Of a stretch of 64,000 nucleotides of DNA, positions 1-9,377 are shown in pieces. The stretch is from an uncultured Acetatifactor sp. GTDB lineage: Bacteria; Bacillota; Clostridia; Lachnospirales; Lachnospiraceae. Under the pieces are notes generated by a model. The model searched no databases, was not told the origin of the DNA, and saw only the letters and a list, made by a program, of their open reading frames with translations. The DNA lies in contig CAJUFO010000003.1 of the NCBI GenBank assembly GCA_910585615.1, positions 18,380 to 82,379 of the forward strand. Direction: 5' to 3'. A program made the position numbers and the translations under genes. The first letter of the stretch is position 1. Every line of letters begins with the position of its first letter.

Positions 1-2
1 AG

Positions 3-506
3 TTCACCGAGGCCATATACCATCTGACCAAGAGCATGGACGGCATGCGGCCCGTGGTCTCCAATGACGGCTGGGAGCACACGCTGACGGATATCCTGAC
101 GCTCCATGACTATGAGGAGGCAGGCAGCGTATTGAAGGCGCGGTATACGGAGCAAAAGGACGAGCTCCTGACGGCGGCCATATGCCACAACGGCTTCAAG
201 ACGGCTTTGGCGGACGGCTACGGATACTGTGGGCAGCCCGTCATCATCAGCGAGTACGGCGGCATCGCTTTCGACAACAATGGCGACGGATGGGGCTACG
301 GCAATCTGGTGAAGTCCAAGGAGGATTTCATCCGCAGATTCGACGATGTCACCACTGCCATCAAGGAACTGCCCTATGTATGCGGCTACTGCTACACCCA
401 GGTGACGGACGTGCAGCAGGAGGTGAACGGCCTGATGGACGAGGAGCGCAATTTCAAGGTAGAACCGGGAGTCATCCGAGAGATCAACGAGAGGAAGGTT
501 CTCTAA
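3..506 (+). CDS. Glycoside hydrolase family 2, C-terminal part (5' end lies outside the window)
   Basis: Frame is open from position 3. Motifs RPVVSNDGWEH, PVIISEYGG (nucleophile region) and GYCYTQVTDVQQEVNGL fit the GH2 TIM barrel. Confidence 0.85.
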   Translation, partial: FTEAIYHLTKSMDGMRPVVSNDGWEHTLTDILTLHDYEEAGSVLKARYTEQKDELLTAAICHNGFKTALADGYGYCGQPVIISEYGGIAFDNNGDGWGYGNLVKSKEDFIRRFDDVTTAIKELPYVCGYCYTQVTDVQQEVNGLMDEERNFKVEPGVIREINERKVL

Positions 507-630
507 GAGTGTATGGTTTTGTTTCCTGGCTTCCGGGCAAAAAGCATTTGAGCCATATTTTTCTCTTGCCGCTTTTGTGGTATATTTAGTGAAAATTCTT
601 GCATAATGCGGATTGCGGGAGGGTATGCGG

Positions 631-2205
631 ATGATCGATACGGGCGGACAGCCCTCAAAGCTGAGAAAGGAAGAGTGGCTGAGGGAAAACCCCATCTATC
701 AGAATACGGTTGCCTGCGAAAAGAGGTTCAATCCGGACTTTTCCCTGTCCCAGCTGCATTTCCATGAATTCCTGGAAGTCAGCATCATCGCGGAGGGCAG
801 CGGCATCCATCGCATCTGGAACAGGGTCCTTACATGCAGGAAGGGCGACGTCTATGTGCTGAACGCGGGCGTGCCCCACGAGTATTTCGTGAAGGACGGG
901 GAGGAAAAGCTGGTCATCCGGAACATCCTGTTCGATGTGGAGGACTGGTTCACAGGGGATCTGGCCTTGCCGGACAGCCCCCGGTTCTGCTACGGGATTT
1001 TCGACGAGGACATCCTGTCCGCCTATGTGTCCCTGAAGGGGCGCTCCATGGAGACGGTGGAGAGGATCTATCAGGCCATCGAAAAGGAGACTGTGGAAAA
1101 GGAACCTGAGTGGATGGAAGCCGTGAAGTCCCAGCTCGTCCTGCTTTTGATTGCCATAAGGCGGCATTTGGAGAAATCCTCCACGGATTCTTCTGTCACG
1201 CCCAGGGACAGGATGGTGGTGTCCACGGCCATGCGCCTGGTGAGGGAACAGTATTTCGATAAGGAACTGACGCTGGAGAGCATAGCAGATTCCCTGTACC
1301 TGAGCAAGTCTTATCTGAGCAAGCTGTTCTGCCGTGTCACGGGGGAGCATTTTTCCGAGTATCTCCGCAGCGTCCGGCTGCAGCAGGCCTGTAGGCTGCT
1401 GCGGGACACCCAGTTGACCAATGAGCAGATTGTATACGGATGCGGCTTAAAGGACGTGCCCTCCTTCTACCAGCTGTTCAAGGCGAAGCTATCCATGACG
1501 CCCAACAGATATCGGACGGAAACGAGAAAAACCATACAAAATAAAGAAGGAAAAGGAGAACCGAACATGAGCATTTTGACAGACATTTCAGAGAACCTGC
1601 AGCGGGGCAAGGCGAAGGTGGTAAAGGAGCTGGTACAGCAGGCAGTGGATGAGGGCATTCCTGTAGAGCAGATCCTAAGCGAAGGATTGCTGGACGGCAT
1701 GGGCATCATCGGCGAGAAGTTCAAGAACAACGAGGTGTATGTGCCGGAGGTGCTTGTGGCCGCCAGGGCCATGAACATGGGGGCGCAGGTGCTCAAGCCC
1801 CTGATGGCGGAGGCAGGCGTGAAGGCCACAGGAAAGGTCTGCATCGGCACCGTACAGGGCGACCTCCACGACATCGGCAAGAACCTGGTGAAGATGATGA
1901 TGGAGGGCAAGGGGCTGGAGGTAGTGGACCTGGGTACGGACGTGGCTCCGGAGACCTATGTGCAGACTGCCATCGAGCAGGGCTGCCAGGTGATTTGCTG
2001 CTCCGCGCTGCTGACCACCACCATGGGCGTCATGGAGGAAGTGGTGAAGAAGGCGGAGGAAGCCGGTATCCGGGACAAGGTGAAGATTATGGTCGGCGGA
2101 GCGCCGGTGACGGAGGAGTACTGCCGGAAAATCGGTGCGGACAAGTATACCCCGGATGCGGCCAGCGCGGCGGATGCCGCCGTGGAGCTCTGCGCCGCCT
2201 GCTGA
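631..2205 (+). CDS. AraC-family regulator (cupin + HTH) fused in frame to a corrinoid (B12-binding) methyltransferase protein
   Basis: N-terminal LHFHEFLEVSII cupin and C-terminal AraC HTH (LESIADSLYLSKSYLSKLF...LQQACRLL...F..TPNRYR), then a B12-binding domain with DLHDIGKNLV, SALLTTT and MVGG. RBS GGGAGGG precedes ATG 631. Confidence 0.85.
   Translation: MIDTGGQPSKLRKEEWLRENPIYQNTVACEKRFNPDFSLSQLHFHEFLEVSIIAEGSGIHRIWNRVLTCRKGDVYVLNAGVPHEYFVKDGEEKLVIRNILFDVEDWFTGDLALPDSPRFCYGIFDEDILSAYVSLKGRSMETVERIYQAIEKETVEKEPEWMEAVKSQLVLLLIAIRRHLEKSSTDSSVTPRDRMVVSTAMRLVREQYFDKELTLESIADSLYLSKSYLSKLFCRVTGEHFSEYLRSVRLQQACRLLRDTQLTNEQIVYGCGLKDVPSFYQLFKAKLSMTPNRYRTETRKTIQNKEGKGEPNMSILTDISENLQRGKAKVVKELVQQAVDEGIPVEQILSEGLLDGMGIIGEKFKNNEVYVPEVLVAARAMNMGAQVLKPLMAEAGVKATGKVCIGTVQGDLHDIGKNLVKMMMEGKGLEVVDLGTDVAPETYVQTAIEQGCQVICCSALLTTTMGVMEEVVKKAEEAGIRDKVKIMVGGAPVTEEYCRKIGADKYTPDAASAADAAVELCAAC
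1567..2205 (+). CDS. Stand-alone corrinoid protein (MtaC/MttC-like) from an internal start in the same frame
   Basis: AAAGGAG RBS 8 nt upstream of ATG 1567. MSILTDISENLQRGK... looks like a typical N-terminus of a complete ~210 aa corrinoid protein. Confidence 0.7.
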   Translation: MSILTDISENLQRGKAKVVKELVQQAVDEGIPVEQILSEGLLDGMGIIGEKFKNNEVYVPEVLVAARAMNMGAQVLKPLMAEAGVKATGKVCIGTVQGDLHDIGKNLVKMMMEGKGLEVVDLGTDVAPETYVQTAIEQGCQVICCSALLTTTMGVMEEVVKKAEEAGIRDKVKIMVGGAPVTEEYCRKIGADKYTPDAASAADAAVELCAAC

Positions 2206-2305
2206 GAAAATCTGTTGCACATAGCCTGCACCCGAAAGTGGGTTTCGATTGTAGATTTTCAATCGTAGATTTTGAGTGCGAGGGAGCGGGCATGGGGGAT
2301 AATGT

Positions 2306-3340
2306 ATGAAGAGAGATATGCGAAAATGGCTGGAGGAGCTTCAGGCTGCCCCAGTGAAAAAAGCCATGCCGGTTCTGTCCTTTCCGGCGGTGCAGCTCCT
2401 GGGAATCAGCGTGAAAGAGCTGATCTCCGACAGTGACAGACAGGCGGAGGGCATGAGGCTGGTGGCGCAGCGCACGGATGCCGCGGCGGCAGTAAGCCTG
2501 ATGGACCTCTCCGTGGAGGCTGAGTGCTTCGGCTCCGCCATCCGGGTGTCGGACAGGGAGGTCCCCACCGTCGTCGGCCGAATCGTGGAGGACGAGGAGG
2601 GAGCGAAAGCCCTGGCGGTTCCCAGGGTGGGGAGCGCCAGGAGCGGGCTGTATGTGGAGGCCATCAGGAAGGCCGTGGGGCTGATTGAAGACAGACCGGT
2701 CTTCGCTGGCGCTATTGGGCCGTTCTCCCTGGCAGCCAGGCTGCTGGACGTCACGGAGATCATGATGGAGTGCTATGACGAGCCGGACATGGTGCACATA
2801 GTGATGGAGAAGGCCACGTCCTTCCTGACAGAGTACTGTAAGGCTTATAAGGAGGCAGGGGCAAACGGCATCGTCCTGGCGGAGCCGGTGACAGGCCTGC
2901 TGTCCCCTGCCCTTGCGGAGGAGTTTTCCGCGCCCTATGTGAAGCGGCTGGTGGATGCCGTGCAGGATGACTCCTTTGTCATCATCTACCATAACTGTGG
3001 GAACAATACCATCCAGATGATAGATTCCATCCTGGACACGGGGGCCGCGGCCTACCATTTCGGAAATGCCATAGACATGGCCCAGATGCTGGCCCGCATC
3101 CCGGCCGGGACAGTGGCCATGGGAAATGTGGATCCCGCAGGAGAGTTCTGCCACGGCACGCCGGAATCCATCCGCAGGGCCACGCTGCAGGTGATGGAAA
3201 ACTGCTGCCCTTATCCGAATTTCGTCATTTCCTCCGGCTGCGATATCCCGCCCATGTCGAAATGGGAGAATATCGATGCTTTCTTCGGGGCCGTGGAGGA
3301 ATACTATGAACGCCGAGGCGCACAGGGGGTATCGAGATGA
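2306..3340 (+). CDS. Uroporphyrinogen decarboxylase family methyltransferase (MtaA/CmuA-like MT2)
   Basis: DLSVEAECFG, GPFSLA, Zn-ligand IYHNCG, MGNVDP and ISSGCDIPP motifs. Confidence 0.85.
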   Translation: MKRDMRKWLEELQAAPVKKAMPVLSFPAVQLLGISVKELISDSDRQAEGMRLVAQRTDAAAAVSLMDLSVEAECFGSAIRVSDREVPTVVGRIVEDEEGAKALAVPRVGSARSGLYVEAIRKAVGLIEDRPVFAGAIGPFSLAARLLDVTEIMMECYDEPDMVHIVMEKATSFLTEYCKAYKEAGANGIVLAEPVTGLLSPALAEEFSAPYVKRLVDAVQDDSFVIIYHNCGNNTIQMIDSILDTGAAAYHFGNAIDMAQMLARIPAGTVAMGNVDPAGEFCHGTPESIRRATLQVMENCCPYPNFVISSGCDIPPMSKWENIDAFFGAVEEYYERRGAQGVSR

Positions 3341-4455
3341 CAAACAGAGAACGAGCGATGAACATCCTGCATTACCAGCCGGCAGACCGGTTCCCGGCAG
3401 TCCATTTCGGCTACTGGAGCGAGCTGCTGGAGGAGTGGGCCGGACAGGGGAAGATTTCAAGAGAGCTGGCGGAGAGCGTGGCCGACGGGAACGAAGCCGA
3501 CAAGGAGCTGGACCGCATCATTGGCTGGGACTTCGACTGGTGCCGGACAGTGGGCCCCAGGAACGGCCTCTTCCCCTCCTTTGAGTACAGGATGCTGGAG
3601 ACCCTGCCGGACGGCACCCAGCGGGTCCAGAACGAATTGGGCCTGATAGAGCGGGTGAAGCCCGGAGTGGCCTCCATCCCCTCGGAGGACGATTATGTCC
3701 TGAAGGACAGAGAAGCCTTCGAGACCCTCTATAAGCCTAAGATGCTCTATGCGCCGGAGCGGATAGACCTGGAGTATTATAAGCATTTCAACGAGACCAG
3801 GCCTATGGACGTCCCGGTGGGGCTGGCCCTGGGCAGCGTGCTGGGGGATATCCGTAACATGGTCTCCGTGGTGGGGATGAGCTATCTGATTTATGACGAG
3901 GATGAAGAGCTGTTCGCGGACATCGTGGACACCTATGCGGAAATGCAGTACCAGTGCGTGAAAACGGTTCTGGAGACCGGCGCGAAGTTCGACTTTGCCC
4001 ATTACTGGGAGGACATCTGCTTCAAGAACGGCCCTCTGCTTTCGCCCGATATCTTTGAGGAGCTCTGCGCGAAGCACTATAAGAAGAGGAACGATCTGTG
4101 CCGTCAGTACGGAATCGATATCATTTCGCTGGATTGTGACGGGGTGACGGAAAAGCTCCTGCCCACATGGTTCGAAAACGGGGTGAATACCATGTTCCCT
4201 ATCGAGGTAGGCGTGTGGGGGGATCAGTTCGAGGCCGCCCGGGGCAGGTTCGGCAAGGGTATGCTGGGCGTGGGAGGCATGGACAAGACCGCGTTCCGCA
4301 AGGACAAGGCGGCTGTGGACGCGGAGATTGAGCGCATGAAGCGGCTGGCCTCCCTGGGCGGCTTCCTTCCGTGTCCCGACCACAGGATCATGCCCGGCTC
4401 CAGTTTCGAGCTGGTGCAGTACTATGCGGAGGAAATCAAGAGGATAAAGGTATGA
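3337..4455 (+). CDS. UroD-family corrinoid methyltransferase (putative substrate-specific MT1)
   Basis: Overlaps the upstream stop (ATGA). Motifs HYWEDICFKNGPLLSP, SLDCDG, FPIEV, GVGGMDK and GGFLPCPDHRI. Confidence 0.8.
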   Translation: MTNRERAMNILHYQPADRFPAVHFGYWSELLEEWAGQGKISRELAESVADGNEADKELDRIIGWDFDWCRTVGPRNGLFPSFEYRMLETLPDGTQRVQNELGLIERVKPGVASIPSEDDYVLKDREAFETLYKPKMLYAPERIDLEYYKHFNETRPMDVPVGLALGSVLGDIRNMVSVVGMSYLIYDEDEELFADIVDTYAEMQYQCVKTVLETGAKFDFAHYWEDICFKNGPLLSPDIFEELCAKHYKKRNDLCRQYGIDIISLDCDGVTEKLLPTWFENGVNTMFPIEVGVWGDQFEAARGRFGKGMLGVGGMDKTAFRKDKAAVDAEIERMKRLASLGGFLPCPDHRIMPGSSFELVQYYAEEIKRIKV

Positions 4456-4493
4456 CCTGGGAGCCTGCCCAATGGGATCCCTAAGGAGGCTGA

Positions 4494-5070
4494 ATGGTGA
4501 AAAAAATTGCAGATACCGAAATTTTAGAGAATTTGGTGAAGAAGGCGCTGGAGCTGGGGGCGGATCATGCTGCAGCGATCCCTGTATCCAAAATCGAGAC
4601 GGATGCCGGCTTCCGGAGCCTGTGCGAGCAGAACACCTGCGGGAGATACGGCAAATGCTGGACCTGTCCACCGGACGTGGGCGACATCGATACGCTGATG
4701 AAGACCATACGCACATTCGACTACGCGGTCGTCTACCAGACCATAGGGATGCTGGAGGACAGCTATGACATAGAAGGCATGGAGGAGGCCGCGAAGAAGC
4801 ACAACCTCCTGATCCGGAGGATGGCGGAAGCGGTGAATGAGGATTCCTTTGTGCGCATCCTGCACCTGGGGGCCGGGGGATGCAATATCTGCCCGGTCTG
4901 CGCCAGGGTGGAGAACCATCCATCCCTGCCGATTTCCGGACATGGCCATATCCTCGTTGGAGGCACATGGAATCAATGTGTCCAGGCTTGCTGCGGAATG
5001 CGGGATGAAGTATATTAATGGGCAGAATACCGTTACGTATTTTGGGGCTGTGCTTTGCTCTCCCATGTAG
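4494..5070 (+). pseudogene. DUF2284 metal-binding protein, frameshifted by a 4-bp duplication
   Basis: Frame 1 carries CEQNTCGRYGKCWTCPP...GAGGCNICPVC. The C-terminus HPCRFPD..SSLEAHGINV...KYINGQNTVTYFGAVL is in another frame. CCAT is duplicated at 4916-4923. Confidence 0.8.
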
Positions 5071-5090
5071 CCTGAATGGCTGAAAAATAA

Positions 5091-5237
5091 AATACCCCGC
5101 TGCAAGCAACGGGGTATCAAGCTTGCAACGCTGCAGAGCAGAAAGTGTCCTTCGGACACTTTGGTATTTGACCCTCGCGGCATTCGCCAACTGGCCGTGC
5201 AAGCACGGCCGCTTGGCTCATTGCCCGCGGGAATAAA
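5091..5237. repeat. Multi-hairpin intergenic element (REP/PATE-like)
   Basis: Stems ATACCCCG/CGGGGTAT (5092-5117), AAAGTGTCC/GGACACTTT (5142-5162) and GGCCGTGC/GCACGGCC (5193-5210). Confidence 0.6.
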
Positions 5238-5259
5238 GAAAAGCATTCATGAGGTATTT

Positions 5260-6840
5260 ATGGCGAAAGTCAAGATAAATGGAGTTGTCTATGATGCGGG
5301 GCTGGGGGTGTTGCTGGGGGATTTATTGACCGGGCAGCGCTCCGGGGAGAACCCTGCTTTTGGCCGTCAGGGGTCTGACGGGAATTCTGGGGGCTCTTTG
5401 ATGGGGTTACCCCATGATTCTTTGATGGGGTTACCCTGCGGAGGCCATGGGCGCTGCGGGAAGTGCAGGGTGCGTGCCCATGGAGCATTGAGCCCCCTTT
5501 CGGATGCGGAGAAGCGGCTTTTGTCCCCGGAGGATATAGCCAGGGGCATCCGCCTGGCCTGCTGCACTGCCGTGGAGGGGGACTGCAGCGTTGAGCTGGA
5601 GCAGCGGGGCAGCGGACAGATCCGGACTGCGGGGGATATGCCGGATATCCGGCTGAAGCCCTCCTTCCAGACCTATGGCTTTGTGCTGGATATCGGTACG
5701 ACCACGCTGGCGGCACGGCTTTATGACGCCGACGGAAGGGTGCTGGCTGAGGGGAGCGGGCTGAACCCACAGGCAGTCTGGGGGGCCGACGTGATTTCCC
5801 GCATCGAAGCGGATCTGCGTGGCGAGGGGCACAAGCTCGCACAGGCAATCCGCGGGGCAGTGGACGGCCTGGTGAGAGAGCTCTCCGGAAAGGCGGGGAT
5901 TGCGCCGGAGGACATTGACGGGATGGCGGTGACAGGAAATACGGTGATGCTCCATCTGCTCACCGGCACCTCCACAGAGCCCCTGTCCCACGCGCCCTTT
6001 GCGGCCGGGCGGCTGTTTGGGGAGACAGTGACGGCGAAAGGCCTGGGGCTTGCCGCCCTGTGCCCGGAAACCAATGTCTATCTGGCTCCCTGTGCGGCTG
6101 CGTTCGTGGGCGCGGATCTTATCACGGCGGTTCTGGCGGGGGCTCTGTGTGATACGCCGGGCACGCGGCTGCTGGCGGACATCGGCACCAACGGCGAGAT
6201 GGCCCTATGGCATGAAGGGGCGCTGTATTGCTGTTCCACCGCTGCCGGCCCTGCTTTTGAGGGCGCGGGAATCTCCATGGGAATGGGGGGGAGCGCAGGC
6301 GCGGTGGACAGGGTGGCCGTCAAGAACGGGAAGCTGAGCGCCCATGTAATCGGAGAGGGCACCGCCCTGGGGATTTGCGGAAGCGGCGTGGTGGACGCGG
6401 TGGCATGCCTGCTGGAGACAGGCCGGATGGACGATACGGGATACCTGGAAGAGGAGAGCGCAGTGGTCTGCGAACAGGTGGTCTTCACACAGAATGACGT
6501 AAGGATGGTACAGCTTGCCAAAAGCGCTATCCATGCCGGCATCAGGACCTTGTTGCACACGGCGGGGCTGGACTGCGCCCGGGTGGAGGCGCTGCTGATT
6601 GCGGGAGGCTTCGGCAGCTATCTGGATGTAGGGAATGCGGCGAAAATCGGCCTGTTCCCGGAGGAGTTGCTGCCCTGCATCCGGGTGGTGGGCAATGCCG
6701 CCCTGAGCGGGGCGTCCATGTTGCTGTTGAATACGGATTACAGATTTGTCTGCGAAAGCTATGCGAAAGGCGCAAAGCTTGTGGAGCTGTCCTCCAACTC
6801 GTATTTCGCGGACGAATATATGGAGAGGATGCTGTTCTGA
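5260..6840 (+). CDS. Reductive activator of corrinoid proteins (RACo/RamA-like; 2Fe-2S + ASKHA ATPase)
   Basis: CGGHGRCGKC...RLAC 2Fe-2S motif, DIGTTT, DIGTNGE, TAAGPAFEGA, GICGSG and AGGFGSY. GAGGT RBS before ATG 5260. Confidence 0.9.
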   Translation: MAKVKINGVVYDAGLGVLLGDLLTGQRSGENPAFGRQGSDGNSGGSLMGLPHDSLMGLPCGGHGRCGKCRVRAHGALSPLSDAEKRLLSPEDIARGIRLACCTAVEGDCSVELEQRGSGQIRTAGDMPDIRLKPSFQTYGFVLDIGTTTLAARLYDADGRVLAEGSGLNPQAVWGADVISRIEADLRGEGHKLAQAIRGAVDGLVRELSGKAGIAPEDIDGMAVTGNTVMLHLLTGTSTEPLSHAPFAAGRLFGETVTAKGLGLAALCPETNVYLAPCAAAFVGADLITAVLAGALCDTPGTRLLADIGTNGEMALWHEGALYCCSTAAGPAFEGAGISMGMGGSAGAVDRVAVKNGKLSAHVIGEGTALGICGSGVVDAVACLLETGRMDDTGYLEEESAVVCEQVVFTQNDVRMVQLAKSAIHAGIRTLLHTAGLDCARVEALLIAGGFGSYLDVGNAAKIGLFPEELLPCIRVVGNAALSGASMLLLNTDYRFVCESYAKGAKLVELSSNSYFADEYMERMLF

Positions 6841-6941
6841 GAGAGGCATGAAATAGAGAAGGAGGTTTGAAGCAAAAAATGACGAACCCCTGGCAAGGCC
6901 ACGTATGCCAGGGGTTCGAATCTAATATCAGAATCTGGAAT

Positions 6942-8474
6942 CTATTTTCCAAGCGCCGTCTTCTGAGCCACCTCCGTCTTTTTCTCATAGCATGCAAAGG
7001 CATTCTCCACCAGCTTCCTGTCCGGCTTCGGCGTGAACAGGCTCACCACAGGCACGATCACAAGTCCCGCCAGCATGGCGATGGCGCCGCAGTTGATAGG
7101 GGACTGCATGATAGCCGGGAAGGAGCTCCTGAAGAAGATATTGGCCACCATCAGCACAGAGCTGAAGAGGAAGCATACCCAGCAGGAAGCTTTCGTCACC
7201 CGTTTGGAGTATAGCGAATACAGGAATGGCGCCAGGAAGGAACCGGCCAGCGCCCCCCAGGACACGCCCATGAGCTGTGCGATGAAGGTCACGGAGCTCT
7301 TGTACTGAATCAGGGCCAGTATGGACGAGATGGCGATGAACACCACTATCAGTATCCGCATGGAGAGCACCTGCTTCCTGTCGTCCATCTTCCGGAAACA
7401 GACCTCCTTCAGGAAATCGATGGTCAGGGTGGAGCTGGAGGCCATGACCAAAGAAGACAGCGTTGACATCGAAGCGGACAGCACCAGAATCACCACCAGG
7501 GCGATCAGCAGGGGCGACAGGCCCGAGAGCATGGTGGGGATGATGGAGTCGAATCCGTTTGCCGCCACGTCGATCTGGTCTGAGAACAGCCTGCCGAAGC
7601 CCCCCAGGAAATAGCAGCCGCCTGCCACCACCAGCGCGAACAGGGTGGAGATGATCGTCCCCTTCTTGATGGACTCCTCGTTCTTGATGGCGTAGAACTT
7701 CTGCACCATCTGGGGCAGCCCCCAGGTGCCCAGGGAGGTGAGGATCACCACGAACAGGAGGTTCAGGGGATCCGGGCCGAAGAAGGACGCGAAGGTGCCA
7801 GGAGCCGTGGAGACTGTCTCGTCCGTAATCCTGGCCAGGCCGTCCAGAGCCGCCATGAAGCCGCCCTTGCTCTTCAGCACGGCAGCGATGATCGTACTGA
7901 TGCCGAACAGCATGATGATTCCCTGGATGAAGTCATTGATGGCCGTGGCCATGTACCCTCCGGCGATGACATAGACAGCCGTCAGCACAGCCATCAGGAT
8001 GATGCAGACGGAATAATCGATGTTGAACGCCATGCCGAACAGCCGGGAGAGGCCGTTGTACAGGGACGCTGTGTAGGGGATCAGGAAGATGAAGATGATG
8101 ACGGACGCGCCGATCTTCAGGGGGCGGCTGCCGAAGCGCTCCCCGAAGAACTGAGGCATGGTGGCAGAGTCCAGGTGCTGGGTCATGATGCGGGTCCTGC
8201 GGCCCAGCACCACCCAGGCCAGCAGCGAGCCGATGACGGCGTTCCCGATGCCCGCCCATGTGGCGGCGATGCCGTACTTCCAGCCGAACTGTCCGGCGTA
8301 GCCTACGAAGACCACGGCGGAGAAATAGGAAGTGCCGTAGGCGAAGGCTGTCAGCCAGGGTCCTACGGAGCGCCCTCCCAGGACGAATCCGTTGACGTCC
8401 GTGGCGTGCTTGCGGCAGTAGAGGCCGATGGCGATCAGCACCGCGAAATAGAGTATCAGTAAGATAAGTTTCAT
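6942..8474 (-). CDS. Sodium:solute symporter (SSS family)
   Basis: About 13 hydrophobic segments; F.LGGR.VGPW.TAF, FGERFGS, GGY.A....DFIQG and SASMSTLSS motifs. Start set at ATG 8474 after the RBS. Confidence 0.9.
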   Translation of the reverse strand: MKLILLILYFAVLIAIGLYCRKHATDVNGFVLGGRSVGPWLTAFAYGTSYFSAVVFVGYAGQFGWKYGIAATWAGIGNAVIGSLLAWVVLGRRTRIMTQHLDSATMPQFFGERFGSRPLKIGASVIIFIFLIPYTASLYNGLSRLFGMAFNIDYSVCIILMAVLTAVYVIAGGYMATAINDFIQGIIMLFGISTIIAAVLKSKGGFMAALDGLARITDETVSTAPGTFASFFGPDPLNLLFVVILTSLGTWGLPQMVQKFYAIKNEESIKKGTIISTLFALVVAGGCYFLGGFGRLFSDQIDVAANGFDSIIPTMLSGLSPLLIALVVILVLSASMSTLSSLVMASSSTLTIDFLKEVCFRKMDDRKQVLSMRILIVVFIAISSILALIQYKSSVTFIAQLMGVSWGALAGSFLAPFLYSLYSKRVTKASCWVCFLFSSVLMVANIFFRSSFPAIMQSPINCGAIAMLAGLVIVPVVSLFTPKPDRKLVENAFACYEKKTEVAQKTALGK

Positions 8475-8587
8475 AGTTTCATGCCCTCTCCTTTGTCGGT
8501 TTAAAGTGCTAAAGCGAGTATAGCACAGTTTGTCAAAATATGCAAACATAATTTTTCTTATAAATATTTGGAAAAATTTTAACCAGG

Positions 8588-8616
8588 TTGACAGTTTTTC
8601 TTATCAATAATAAAAT
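8588..8616 (+). promoter_or_regulatory. Sigma-70/A promoter for the two-component operon
   Basis: TTGACA-17 nt-TAAAAT. Confidence 0.6.
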
Positions 8617-8705
8617 GGAGATACAAAAAGGATACATTTCTGTTTTTTCATAGAAACTGAGATATCACATCATAAAGTCACACCATACAGAGATGAGGGG
8701 ATATT

Positions 8706-9377
8706 ATGCTGAAGATACTGATAGCGGAGGACGAAGAGCCCATCGCCAACCTGATTAAAATGAACCTGCGCAGGGCGGGATATTCCTGTGTCTGGGCGCC
8801 GGACGGGGAGAAGGCCGCCGACCTGATGGACACCGAGAAGTTCGACCTGGTGCTGCTGGACGTGATGCTGCCGGGCATCAACGGCTATGAGCTCATGGAG
8901 TACGCCAGGAGCCTGGAGCTGCCCGTCATCTTCCTGACGGCCCTGGGAAGCACGGAGAACAAGGTGAAAGGGCTGAAGATGGGAGCCGACGACTACCTGA
9001 CCAAGCCCTTTGAAATCGTGGAGCTCCTGGCCAGGGTGGAGGCCGTGCTGCGCCGGTACCACAAGACGGAGACGCTCCTCACCGTATTCGACGTGGTGAT
9101 CGACACGGCCTCCCGGTCGGTGACCCAGAACGGGGAGCCCGTGATGCTGACCATGAAGGAGTTCGAGCTTTTGCTGCTGCTGGCCAGGAACCGCAACATA
9201 GCCCTGTACAGGGAGACCATCTACGAGAATATCTGGGGCGGCGAGTACATGGGTCAGAGCAGGACAGTGGATCTCCATATCCAGCGGCTGAAAAAGAAGC
9301 TGAACTGGGACAATGAGATTGCGGCTGTCTACAAGGTGGGATACCGGCTGGAGGGAGAGGAAAAAATTACGAAGTAG
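8706..9377 (+). CDS. OmpR-family response regulator
   Basis: LIAEDE, DLVLLDVMLPG, GADDYLTKPF, winged helix LTMKEFELL...RTVDLHIQRL. Confidence 0.95.
   Translation: MLKILIAEDEEPIANLIKMNLRRAGYSCVWAPDGEKAADLMDTEKFDLVLLDVMLPGINGYELMEYARSLELPVIFLTALGSTENKVKGLKMGADDYLTKPFEIVELLARVEAVLRRYHKTETLLTVFDVVIDTASRSVTQNGEPVMLTMKEFELLLLLARNRNIALYRETIYENIWGGEYMGQSRTVDLHIQRLKKKLNWDNEIAAVYKVGYRLEGEEKITK

Follow-up and report, generated by a model that had tools for sequence, protein, structure and literature searches.

Several three- or four-component O-demethylase and dehalogenase systems of anaerobes share a common architecture. In OdmABCD/Vdm (Acetobacterium dehalogenans), MtvABC (Moorella), MtoABCD and CdmBCA, a methyltransferase I (MT I) from the UroD superfamily is clustered with an ATP-dependent activator and a small corrinoid protein that has a DxHxxG motif. 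Their methyltransferase II (MT II) is a tetrahydrofolate (H4folate)-binding TIM barrel, as in 4O1E or MtqA, and their hosts run the Wood-Ljungdahl pathway. A second set is described in the preprint of Kountz and Balskus (PMC10418091), cited here from part of its text. These type 1 mlp clusters of non-methanogenic anaerobes, gut species included, hold MtaA homologues, a corrinoid protein and a RACE/RACo activase, with no H4folate methyltransferase. Here, we analyzed a 64,000-nt stretch of DNA (the window; G000:C3:18380-82379) from G000, the Acetatifactor metagenome-assembled genome (MAG) that is its source (4.94 Mb, 210 contigs, 96.9% complete). At its start lies an operon for an AraC regulator fused to a corrinoid protein, two UroD-fold methyltransferases, a DUF2284 protein and a RACo-type activase. 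We refer to the MtaA-like enzyme (2306-3340) as MT2 and to the divergent UroD-fold enzyme (3337-4455) as MT1. The label MT2 was given by homology alone; the enzyme has a thiol-type zinc site and no seen link to folate.

We propose, with a probability of about 0.6, that this operon encodes a self-contained, folate-independent corrinoid methyl relay in non-acetogenic, Acetatifactor-like gut Lachnospiraceae. What was observed directly is which genes are present, their domains and ligand patterns, their distribution and synteny, and their occurrence in gut RNA libraries. From these, we infer the direction of methyl flow, an oxygen-type donor, a thiol acceptor and the role of the regulator.

Gene content and the two methyltransferases

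Genes were called from a listing of open reading frames (ORFs) and from Pfam and NCBIfam profile scans of the window proteins. The features at this end of the window are as follows.

3..506, plus strand: 3' part of a glycoside hydrolase (GH) family 2 gene, GH2 (C-terminal 167 aa of a 593-aa protein; Glyco_hydro_2_N, Glyco_hydro_2 and Glyco_hydro_2_C in Pfam)
507..624, plus strand: intergenic region; about 100 nt of it (about 512-612) are also conserved ahead of AraC-corrinoid genes of other lineages
625/631-2205, plus strand: AraC regulator (cupin plus helix-turn-helix [HTH]) fused to a methyltransferase-type corrinoid protein, Pfam domains all above cut-offs
2306..3340, plus strand: MT2, MtaA-like UroD-family methyltransferase, 344 aa (URO-D, 183.3 bits; His229-x-Cys231...Cys312 zinc site)
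3337..4455, plus strand: MT1, divergent UroD-fold methyltransferase, 372 aa (URO-D, 28.8 bits, cut-off 23.9), its start overlapping the MT2 stop by 4 nt
4494..5071 (ORF 4494-5018), plus strand: DUF2284 metal-binding protein (Pfam, 98.6 bits, covering profile positions 2-115 of 161 only)
5086..5240, no strand assigned: dispersed repeat (about 150 nt, two hairpins, 47 matches in G000) that sits as an insertion in the DUF2284-RACo intergenic region
5260..6840 (ORF 5161-6840, likely start 5260), plus strand: RACo-type ATP-dependent reductive activase (RACo_C_ter, 215 bits; Raco_middle, 133; Fer2, 22)
6942..8549, minus strand: sodium:solute symporter of the SSF family (SSF, 186 bits), convergent with the operon

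A preliminary description of this DNA had named six genes (GH2, AraC-corrinoid, MtaA-like, second UroD, DUF2284 and RACo), and all were recovered on the plus strand at the same positions. GH2 and the fusion gene are separated by 118 nt, the fusion gene and MT2 by 100 nt, MT1 and DUF2284 by 38 nt, and DUF2284 and RACo by 188 nt, largely the repeat element. The description was also right to see here a cluster for corrinoid methyl transfer whose MT1 resembles O-demethylases.

Alignment of MT2 with the Methanosarcina MtaA structure 4ay7 showed that the HxC motif and the third cysteine are kept. The His-Cys-Cys residues were invariant in 36/36 family members. Within the UroD superfamily, His-Cys-Cys is the mark of S-methyltransferases, and in O-demethylases the Cys ligands are replaced by carboxylates or by other residues or non-ligands, as stated in the part of PMC10418091 used here. 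MT2 therefore has a site of the former kind, and it probably passes a methyl group from the corrinoid to a thiol.

MT1 is far more divergent. None of the NCBIfam models matched it, phmmer against PDB chains returned nothing at E<=1 save chance matches to bacterioferritin, and its protein-atlas clusters carried only the name 'URO-D family protein'. The AlphaFold model of MT1 (pLDDT 92.4) had its best fold matches in MtaA (4ay7/4ay8) and then in UroD, at TM scores of 0.60-0.66. Using hhalign, a profile of 33 MT1 relatives aligned with the MT2-family profile at a probability of 95%, and this alignment placed Leu265, Cys267 and His349 at the positions of the His, Cys and Cys ligands of MT2. Around these positions Asp266, Asp268, Asp348, Glu225 and Asp226 are invariant, and the invariant pocket residues are chiefly charged or polar, plus Trp. 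Such a site would be expected of an oxygen-directed, not a sulfur-directed, enzyme, and MT1 is presumed to be a substrate-specific O-demethylase. The MT2 and MT1 sequences lie in one 715-aa ORF in another Acetatifactor MAG (L082:8972-11119; L numbers denote the loci compared), which looks like a natural fusion of both methyltransferases. Many related clusters hold one to three further UroD-type genes (L081:6309-7349, L102:11146-12246, L094:3672-4724 and others), 23-27% or about 66% identical to MT1. These extra genes suggest that several donors share one carrier.

The carrier is itself unusual in its fusion to a regulator. The fusion protein matched B12-binding (86.6 bits), B12-binding_2 (63.7), HTH_18 (65.1), HTH_AraC (44.5) and AraC_binding (37.0), and its corrinoid part carries the DxHxxG motif. 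Its TIGR02370 score of 181 bits lies under the cut-off of 215. An internal AAGGAG followed by an ATG at 1568 marks the start of the corrinoid part, and this internal ribosome-binding site may give a free carrier. In a search of the whole genome, the fused domain was the sole strong methyltransferase-type B12-binding match in G000. Relatives of the fusion numbered 2,971 proteins at E<=1e-30; among the 120 listed, which bear generic names throughout, 119 show the fusion. A genus-weighted sample of 61 genomes contained the whole fusion only in G000 and in its 99%-identical sister G004, and stand-alone carriers with 58-75% identity in other genomes. The literature search, supplements aside, found nothing relevant on AraC-corrinoid fusions.

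Upstream of the fusion gene, the window and L075 (both after GH2) share the conserved stretch of about 100 nt with L082, L086 and L087 (all after a UroD gene). Its presence whatever gene precedes indicates that the operon probably has its own operator and promoter in 507..624. Over positions 1-9000 of the window, an Rfam scan matched no family at E<=0.1 and so gave no sign of a cobalamin riboswitch.

We then considered where the methyl group could go. A Pfam scan found no pterin-binding (PF00809) protein in the cluster, and the single PF00809 match in G000 was FolP (TIGR01496, 316 bits), encoded within a folC-folE-folP-folBK operon. An H4folate-type methyltransferase was found neither in the cluster nor in the 96.9%-complete G000, and the CdhC/AcsB acetyl-CoA synthase (PF03598) had 0 matches in the same genome. 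The locus had been assigned to the architecture of acetogen O-/N-demethylases. This assignment did not hold: the second enzyme is MtaA-like with a His-Cys-Cys site and, with neither an H4folate MT II nor an acetyl-CoA synthase found, the operon does not match the acetogen set (MT I, carrier, H4folate-dependent MT II and activase). MetE was not found in G000. Its small contig C148 carries a fragment with an S-methyl_trans (homocysteine) domain, so MetH is probably fragmented in the assembly. Given this fragment, a lack of MetH was no longer counted in favor of a methionine-forming role. Stand-alone genes for homocysteine S-methyltransferase domains (PF02574) occur in or beside clusters that have no MT2 (L092:10547-11398, minus strand; L147:13680-14510, plus strand), which suggests that they replace the acceptor-side enzyme there. 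Taken with the His-Cys-Cys site of MT2, these genes make a thiol our best guess at the acceptor, homocysteine first.

Contigs from mouse-gut RNA libraries of three studies covered the operon; DNA may be present in such libraries, and a contig is no proof of a single transcript. Two of the library runs (X numbers), X5 and X9, had contigs over GH2 and the operon and little or nothing over the SBP (solute-binding protein) and AraC/GGDEF genes upstream of GH2, in data whose depth cannot rank genes and whose holes prove nothing.

Distribution and neighboring genes

Relatives of MT1 were found at E<=1e-20 in 34/401 genomes of the order, and 12 of these, including G000, had a full-length match of at least 45% identity. 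In a collection of one genome per species (185,579 species), MT1 relatives were confirmed at 451 places. A separate protein search gave 4,837 matches at E<=0.001 among 8,000 candidates scored; the 120 listed were 77-97% identical and bore generic names only. We compared the 80 best of the 451 places (76-97% identical, one genome per species). Their hosts are mouse-gut Acetatifactor and other Lachnospiraceae as well as ruminant Oscillospiraceae, Acutalibacteraceae and Ruminococcus MAGs. Near MT1, the full AraC-carrier fusion was present in 31/80 loci, a carrier-only form in 32/80 and the fusion plus a separate carrier in 2/80, so that a carrier in either form accompanied 61/80. DUF2284 was found near MT1 in 50/80 loci, MT2 in 46/80 and RACo in 42/80. 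The module is widespread in gut and rumen Clostridia.

The whole GH2 gene spans G000:C3:17104-18885 and starts 1,276 nt before the window. Its best solved relatives were 7xyr (7.8e-91), followed by the Streptomyces beta-D-galactofuranosidase structures 9j6n/9j6m (about 1e-75). Both 7XYR and 9J6M are placed in the furanose-acting group III of GH2 in the part of PMC12243196 consulted for this comparison, where 7XYR is described as uncharacterized. As read by eye, the protein has the NE and EYG catalytic motifs and no signal peptide. These features, together with its furanosidase relatives, indicate that it is probably a cytoplasmic furanosidase (a candidate for group III, subfamilies GH2_18/19) and not a glucuronidase. 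Members of GH2_18 and GH2_19 (beta-D-galactofuranosidase and alpha-L-arabinofuranosidase; 9J6M, 7XYR) resemble it in being the best solved matches (1e-75 to 1e-90), in length (about 590 aa) and in the NE/EYG motifs. A beta-glucuronidase was considered and set aside in favor of the furanosidase group, the NCBIfam model PRK10150 scoring 121.8 bits against a cut-off of 544.

Promoter and terminator scans gave counts no higher than in shuffled sequences and nothing convincing between GH2 and the operon. A terminator-like hairpin at 567-582 is weak, and such sites were no more frequent than in shuffles. RNA-library contigs from two studies bridge the junction (X10 record 4, X9 record 26 and X5 record 17), and GH2 may be read through into the operon. 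The linkage is nevertheless narrow. The preliminary description had tied the cluster to this glycosidase, and the tie is not syntenic in relatives: a GH2 gene of at least 80% identity precedes the operon in only 4/80 loci (L071, L072, L073 and L075; L072 is the locus of the sister species G004), all from close Acetatifactor relatives with MT1 at least 94% identical. Acetatifactor aquisgranensis (L076, MT1 87%) has the operon, the downstream symporter and the two-component genes, with an ABC permease gene upstream and no GH2. A further UroD gene stands in the place of GH2 upstream of the operon in L081, L082 and L086. GH2 is a recent, lineage-specific neighbor and not a defining part of the operon.

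The preliminary description was borne out in that sugar-uptake and glycosidase genes surround the cluster: G004 has SBP and ABC permease genes upstream of GH2, and the ABC permease gene of A. aquisgranensis lies upstream of its operon. Relatives of MT1 are often closely adjoined by carbohydrate genes. GH3 lies 38 nt before the carrier in L061, RhaA lies 22 nt before a 50%-identical MT1 and after a GH78-like gene in L064, and UxuA directly follows MT1 in L059. GH95 begins 3 nt after MT1 in L147, GH127 lies 42 nt before MT1 in L142/L145, GH28 is two genes after RACo in L082, and MFS_2 and sulfatase genes precede MT1 in L121/L122. Glycoside hydrolases made up 31-33 of the 310 ORFs (>=170 aa) inside or within three ORFs of the core, in 25/72 loci and from at least 15 families. 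As a control, 8/120 (6.7%) were glycoside hydrolases in a random 120 of the 208 ORFs farther out in the same loci. The share near the core (about 10%) was not significantly higher (Fisher p 0.27-0.35), and both counts were diluted by spurious antisense ORFs from the ORF caller. The operon lives in glycan-utilization neighborhoods without any glycosidase as a fixed partner.

The DNA ahead of GH2 holds, in this order, a prophage end, the gene of a TIR-domain protein, miaA, a NAGLU_C fragment and the genes of a 788-aa SBP-like and an AraC-HTH/GGDEF-like protein. In L001:1539-8601 (L001 spans the DNA upstream of the window), the prophage end encodes a holin, an amidase/glucosaminidase lysin and two large serine recombinases, and after it come an HTH protein and a protein with a CAP12/Pycsar-type TIR effector domain. 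The AraC-HTH/GGDEF-like protein (L001:15871-16677, 268 aa) joins an AraC-type HTH to a partial GGDEF domain and is encoded 426 nt upstream of GH2.

Within the 3' half of the operon, the repeat at 5086-5240 matched no Rfam family. Summed RNA-contig depth over it was very high, and its borders have many loose contig ends. In X9 and X10 there are contigs that skip 130 nt at this point, which means that this repeat copy is missing from some strains. RACo, the sole one found in a search of G000, has a 2Fe-2S ferredoxin-like N-terminal part. The symporter that follows is in turn followed by a two-component system. Symporter genes with 94-99% identity to it follow the cluster in L072, L073, L076, L080, L081 and L088, which makes it a conserved Acetatifactor neighbor and a candidate importer. 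In G004 (L072:13845-17099), a 1,084-aa ORF with no Pfam match lies between RACo and the symporter; G000 does not have it, and about five Acetatifactor loci hold members of its family.

A second, partial copy of the cluster is present on a 5.9-kb contig of G000 (G000:C142; L070:156-1237). Its DUF2284 is 98.9% identical to that of the window, in the same frame, and the C-terminal part of its MT1 is only 83% identical. Compared with the window, G004 shows 76% identity in DUF2284 and 83% in RACo, with 97-99% in the other genes. The second copy and the drop in identity in G004 suggest that the 3' half of the operon may have been exchanged by recombination.

The proposed relay and its alternatives

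According to our model, MT1 would take a methyl group from an oxygen-bound donor and place it on Co(I) of the corrinoid protein. MT2, through its His-Cys-Cys zinc site, would hand the group to a thiol-type acceptor and not to H4folate, with homocysteine as the leading guess. RACo would re-reduce oxidized corrinoid at the expense of ATP, and DUF2284 would serve as a metal-binding helper. Most likely, the AraC part of the fusion activates the operon by acting on the conserved region ahead of it. As the donor, aryl methyl ethers are our tentative first choice, at somewhat less than even odds. O-Methyl sugars or uronate methyl groups are a less probable choice, and donors of another kind stand at the same lower level. 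A more far-reaching version of the model, which we consider rather improbable, would see here an O2-free, B12-dependent route by which non-acetogenic gut and rumen Clostridia would move methyl groups from O-methylated plant sugars or methyl-esterified uronates, imported along with glycan fragments, to homocysteine or another thiol without folate. The AraC-fused carrier would report its loading state to the promoter.

Several points weigh against the folate-independent relay. The donor, the acceptor and the direction of transfer are read wholly from ligand patterns and context. MT2 scored below the curated cut-offs of every MtaA/MtbA model in NCBIfam (NF004889, 138.8 against 244; TIGR01463, 130.4 against 235.4; NF040654, 100.2 against 400), and all matches of MtaA/CmuA-type models to it were below cut-off. 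Some UroD-family MT I enzymes, such as CdmB, need no zinc according to the part of PMC13222342 cited here, so the ligand logic may mislead. As many as 17/80 MT1 loci had no partner gene in the DNA compared, several of them with full 10-kb flanks. The absence of a pterin-binding gene is not proven in a MAG that is about 97% complete, lies in 210 contigs and has an apparently fragmented MetH. Finally, the assembly has a 4-nt CCAT duplication at about 4916-4923 that breaks the DUF2284 frame. These 4 nt are missing from contigs in each of the four RNA-library runs, and the other frame (4924-5071) encodes a normal C-terminus with 59% identity to an intact homologue (its residues 134-177). Either the assembly is in error here or the break is specific to the strain.

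In the reading of the preliminary description, GH2 would be a functional member of the unit: it would free a methylated sugar or glycoside from polysaccharides of the diet, for demethylation by the operon. This reading is in line with the position of GH2, which shares the operon's strand and ends 118 nt ahead of it without a convincing terminator in the gap. The contigs of two studies that span the junction and the SBP and ABC permease genes ahead of GH2 in G004 fit it too. So do the sugar genes that tightly adjoin MT1 relatives (L061, L064, L059, L147, L142 and L082), the glycoside hydrolases within three ORFs of the core in 25/72 loci, and the charged and polar MT1 pocket with its Trp. However, GH2 accompanies the operon in only 4/80 loci, from near-identical relatives, and A. 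aquisgranensis keeps the operon without it. No GH family is common to the loci (at least 15 were seen) while MT1 remains 77-85% identical across bacterial families, and the density of glycoside hydrolases near the core was not significantly above that farther out (p 0.27-0.35). Moreover, the conserved region before the AraC-corrinoid gene is independent of GH2, and our literature search found no description of corrinoid-dependent demethylation of a sugar methyl ether. We therefore regard a GH2-dependent function as improbable.

The operon could instead encode an aryl methyl ether O-demethylase for ferulate, syringate or methoxyflavonoids, as in Blautia and Eubacterium, with the glycosidases as chance neighbors or as enzymes that free the aglycone. 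The characterized O-demethylating MT I enzymes of the UroD superfamily (OdmB, VdmB, MtvB and MtoB) all act on methoxylated aromatics, as given in the portions cited of PMC13222342 and PMC10418091. The hosts are mouse and ruminant gut bacteria on plant-rich diets, and varied GH families would fit varied glycoside carriers of one aglycone. Against this stand the absence of a solved MT1 relative in the phmmer search and of any NCBIfam match, and the pairing of MT I in acetogen systems with an H4folate methyltransferase, which was not found here. This possibility is doubtful, and yet less so than the GH2-dependent one. The least probable of the alternatives is that the operon belongs with the mlp clusters and handles methyl-sulfur or methyl-selenium compounds. 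Demethylation of a methylthio or methylseleno compound would then fall to the His-Cys-Cys enzyme, with the divergent enzyme on the acceptor side or as a second donor-side enzyme. According to PMC10418091, the mlp clusters have the same outline of UroD-type enzymes, a corrinoid protein and RACo/RACE, with no H4folate methyltransferase; MT2 has the His-Cys-Cys site, and DUF2284 weakly matches NCBIfam models of selenoproteins that contain a DUF2284 domain. Yet the definition of a type 1 mlp cluster calls for two Mlps with His-Cys-Cys, Mlp2 and Mlp3, and only one such protein is present here. Its highly constrained, conserved partner MT1 has a non-thiol site, and no sulfur or selenium genes were seen in the flanks of the window.

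Comparison with known systems

Known corrinoid demethylases feed acetogenesis or methanogenesis. The operon described here occurs in bacteria in which neither pathway was found, and it has no folate step; both ends of the relay, the donor and the destination of the methyl group, therefore become questions. The answers bear on how the gut handles methoxylated compounds from diet and drugs, on the fate of methylated plant sugars, and on whether or not methionine is made directly from dietary methyl groups. If our model is true, the regulator-carrier fusion would tie transcription to the state of the cofactor in a new way.

A regulator of the same broad class is known from the MtaABC methanol system of methylotrophic acetogens. 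The AraC-type activator MtaR is the first gene of the corrinoid methyltransferase operon mta, according to the section of PMC13602510 drawn on here, so that an AraC-type regulator likewise heads the operon. MtaR is a separate protein with a PocR sensor, whereas the regulator in the window has a cupin sensor and is fused to the carrier. The fold of MtaB also differs from that of MT1.

Like the Odm, Vdm, Mtv, Mto and Cdm systems, the proposed relay would run from a methyl substrate to Co(I) and on to an acceptor. Unlike them, the window has an MtaA-like His-Cys-Cys enzyme in the place of the H4folate-binding barrel, no pterin-binding methyltransferase or acetyl-CoA synthase was found, the carrier is fused to AraC and the MT1 clade is uncharacterized. 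For the type 1 mlp clusters, a sulfur-type acceptor or donor was inferred from His-Cys-Cys, as here, and those clusters are described in the same partial text (PMC10418091) as having two or three His-Cys-Cys Mlps and links to sulfur and selenium genes. The window has one His-Cys-Cys enzyme and one conserved Cys/His/Asp-type enzyme, an AraC-fused carrier, DUF2284 and glycan neighborhoods. In outline, the operon is thus nearer to the mlp clusters than to the acetogen set, and it differs from them in pairing one thiol-type with one oxygen-type enzyme. What is new is a probably folate-independent corrinoid methyltransferase operon with a regulator-fused carrier and an MT1 from an uncharacterized clade.

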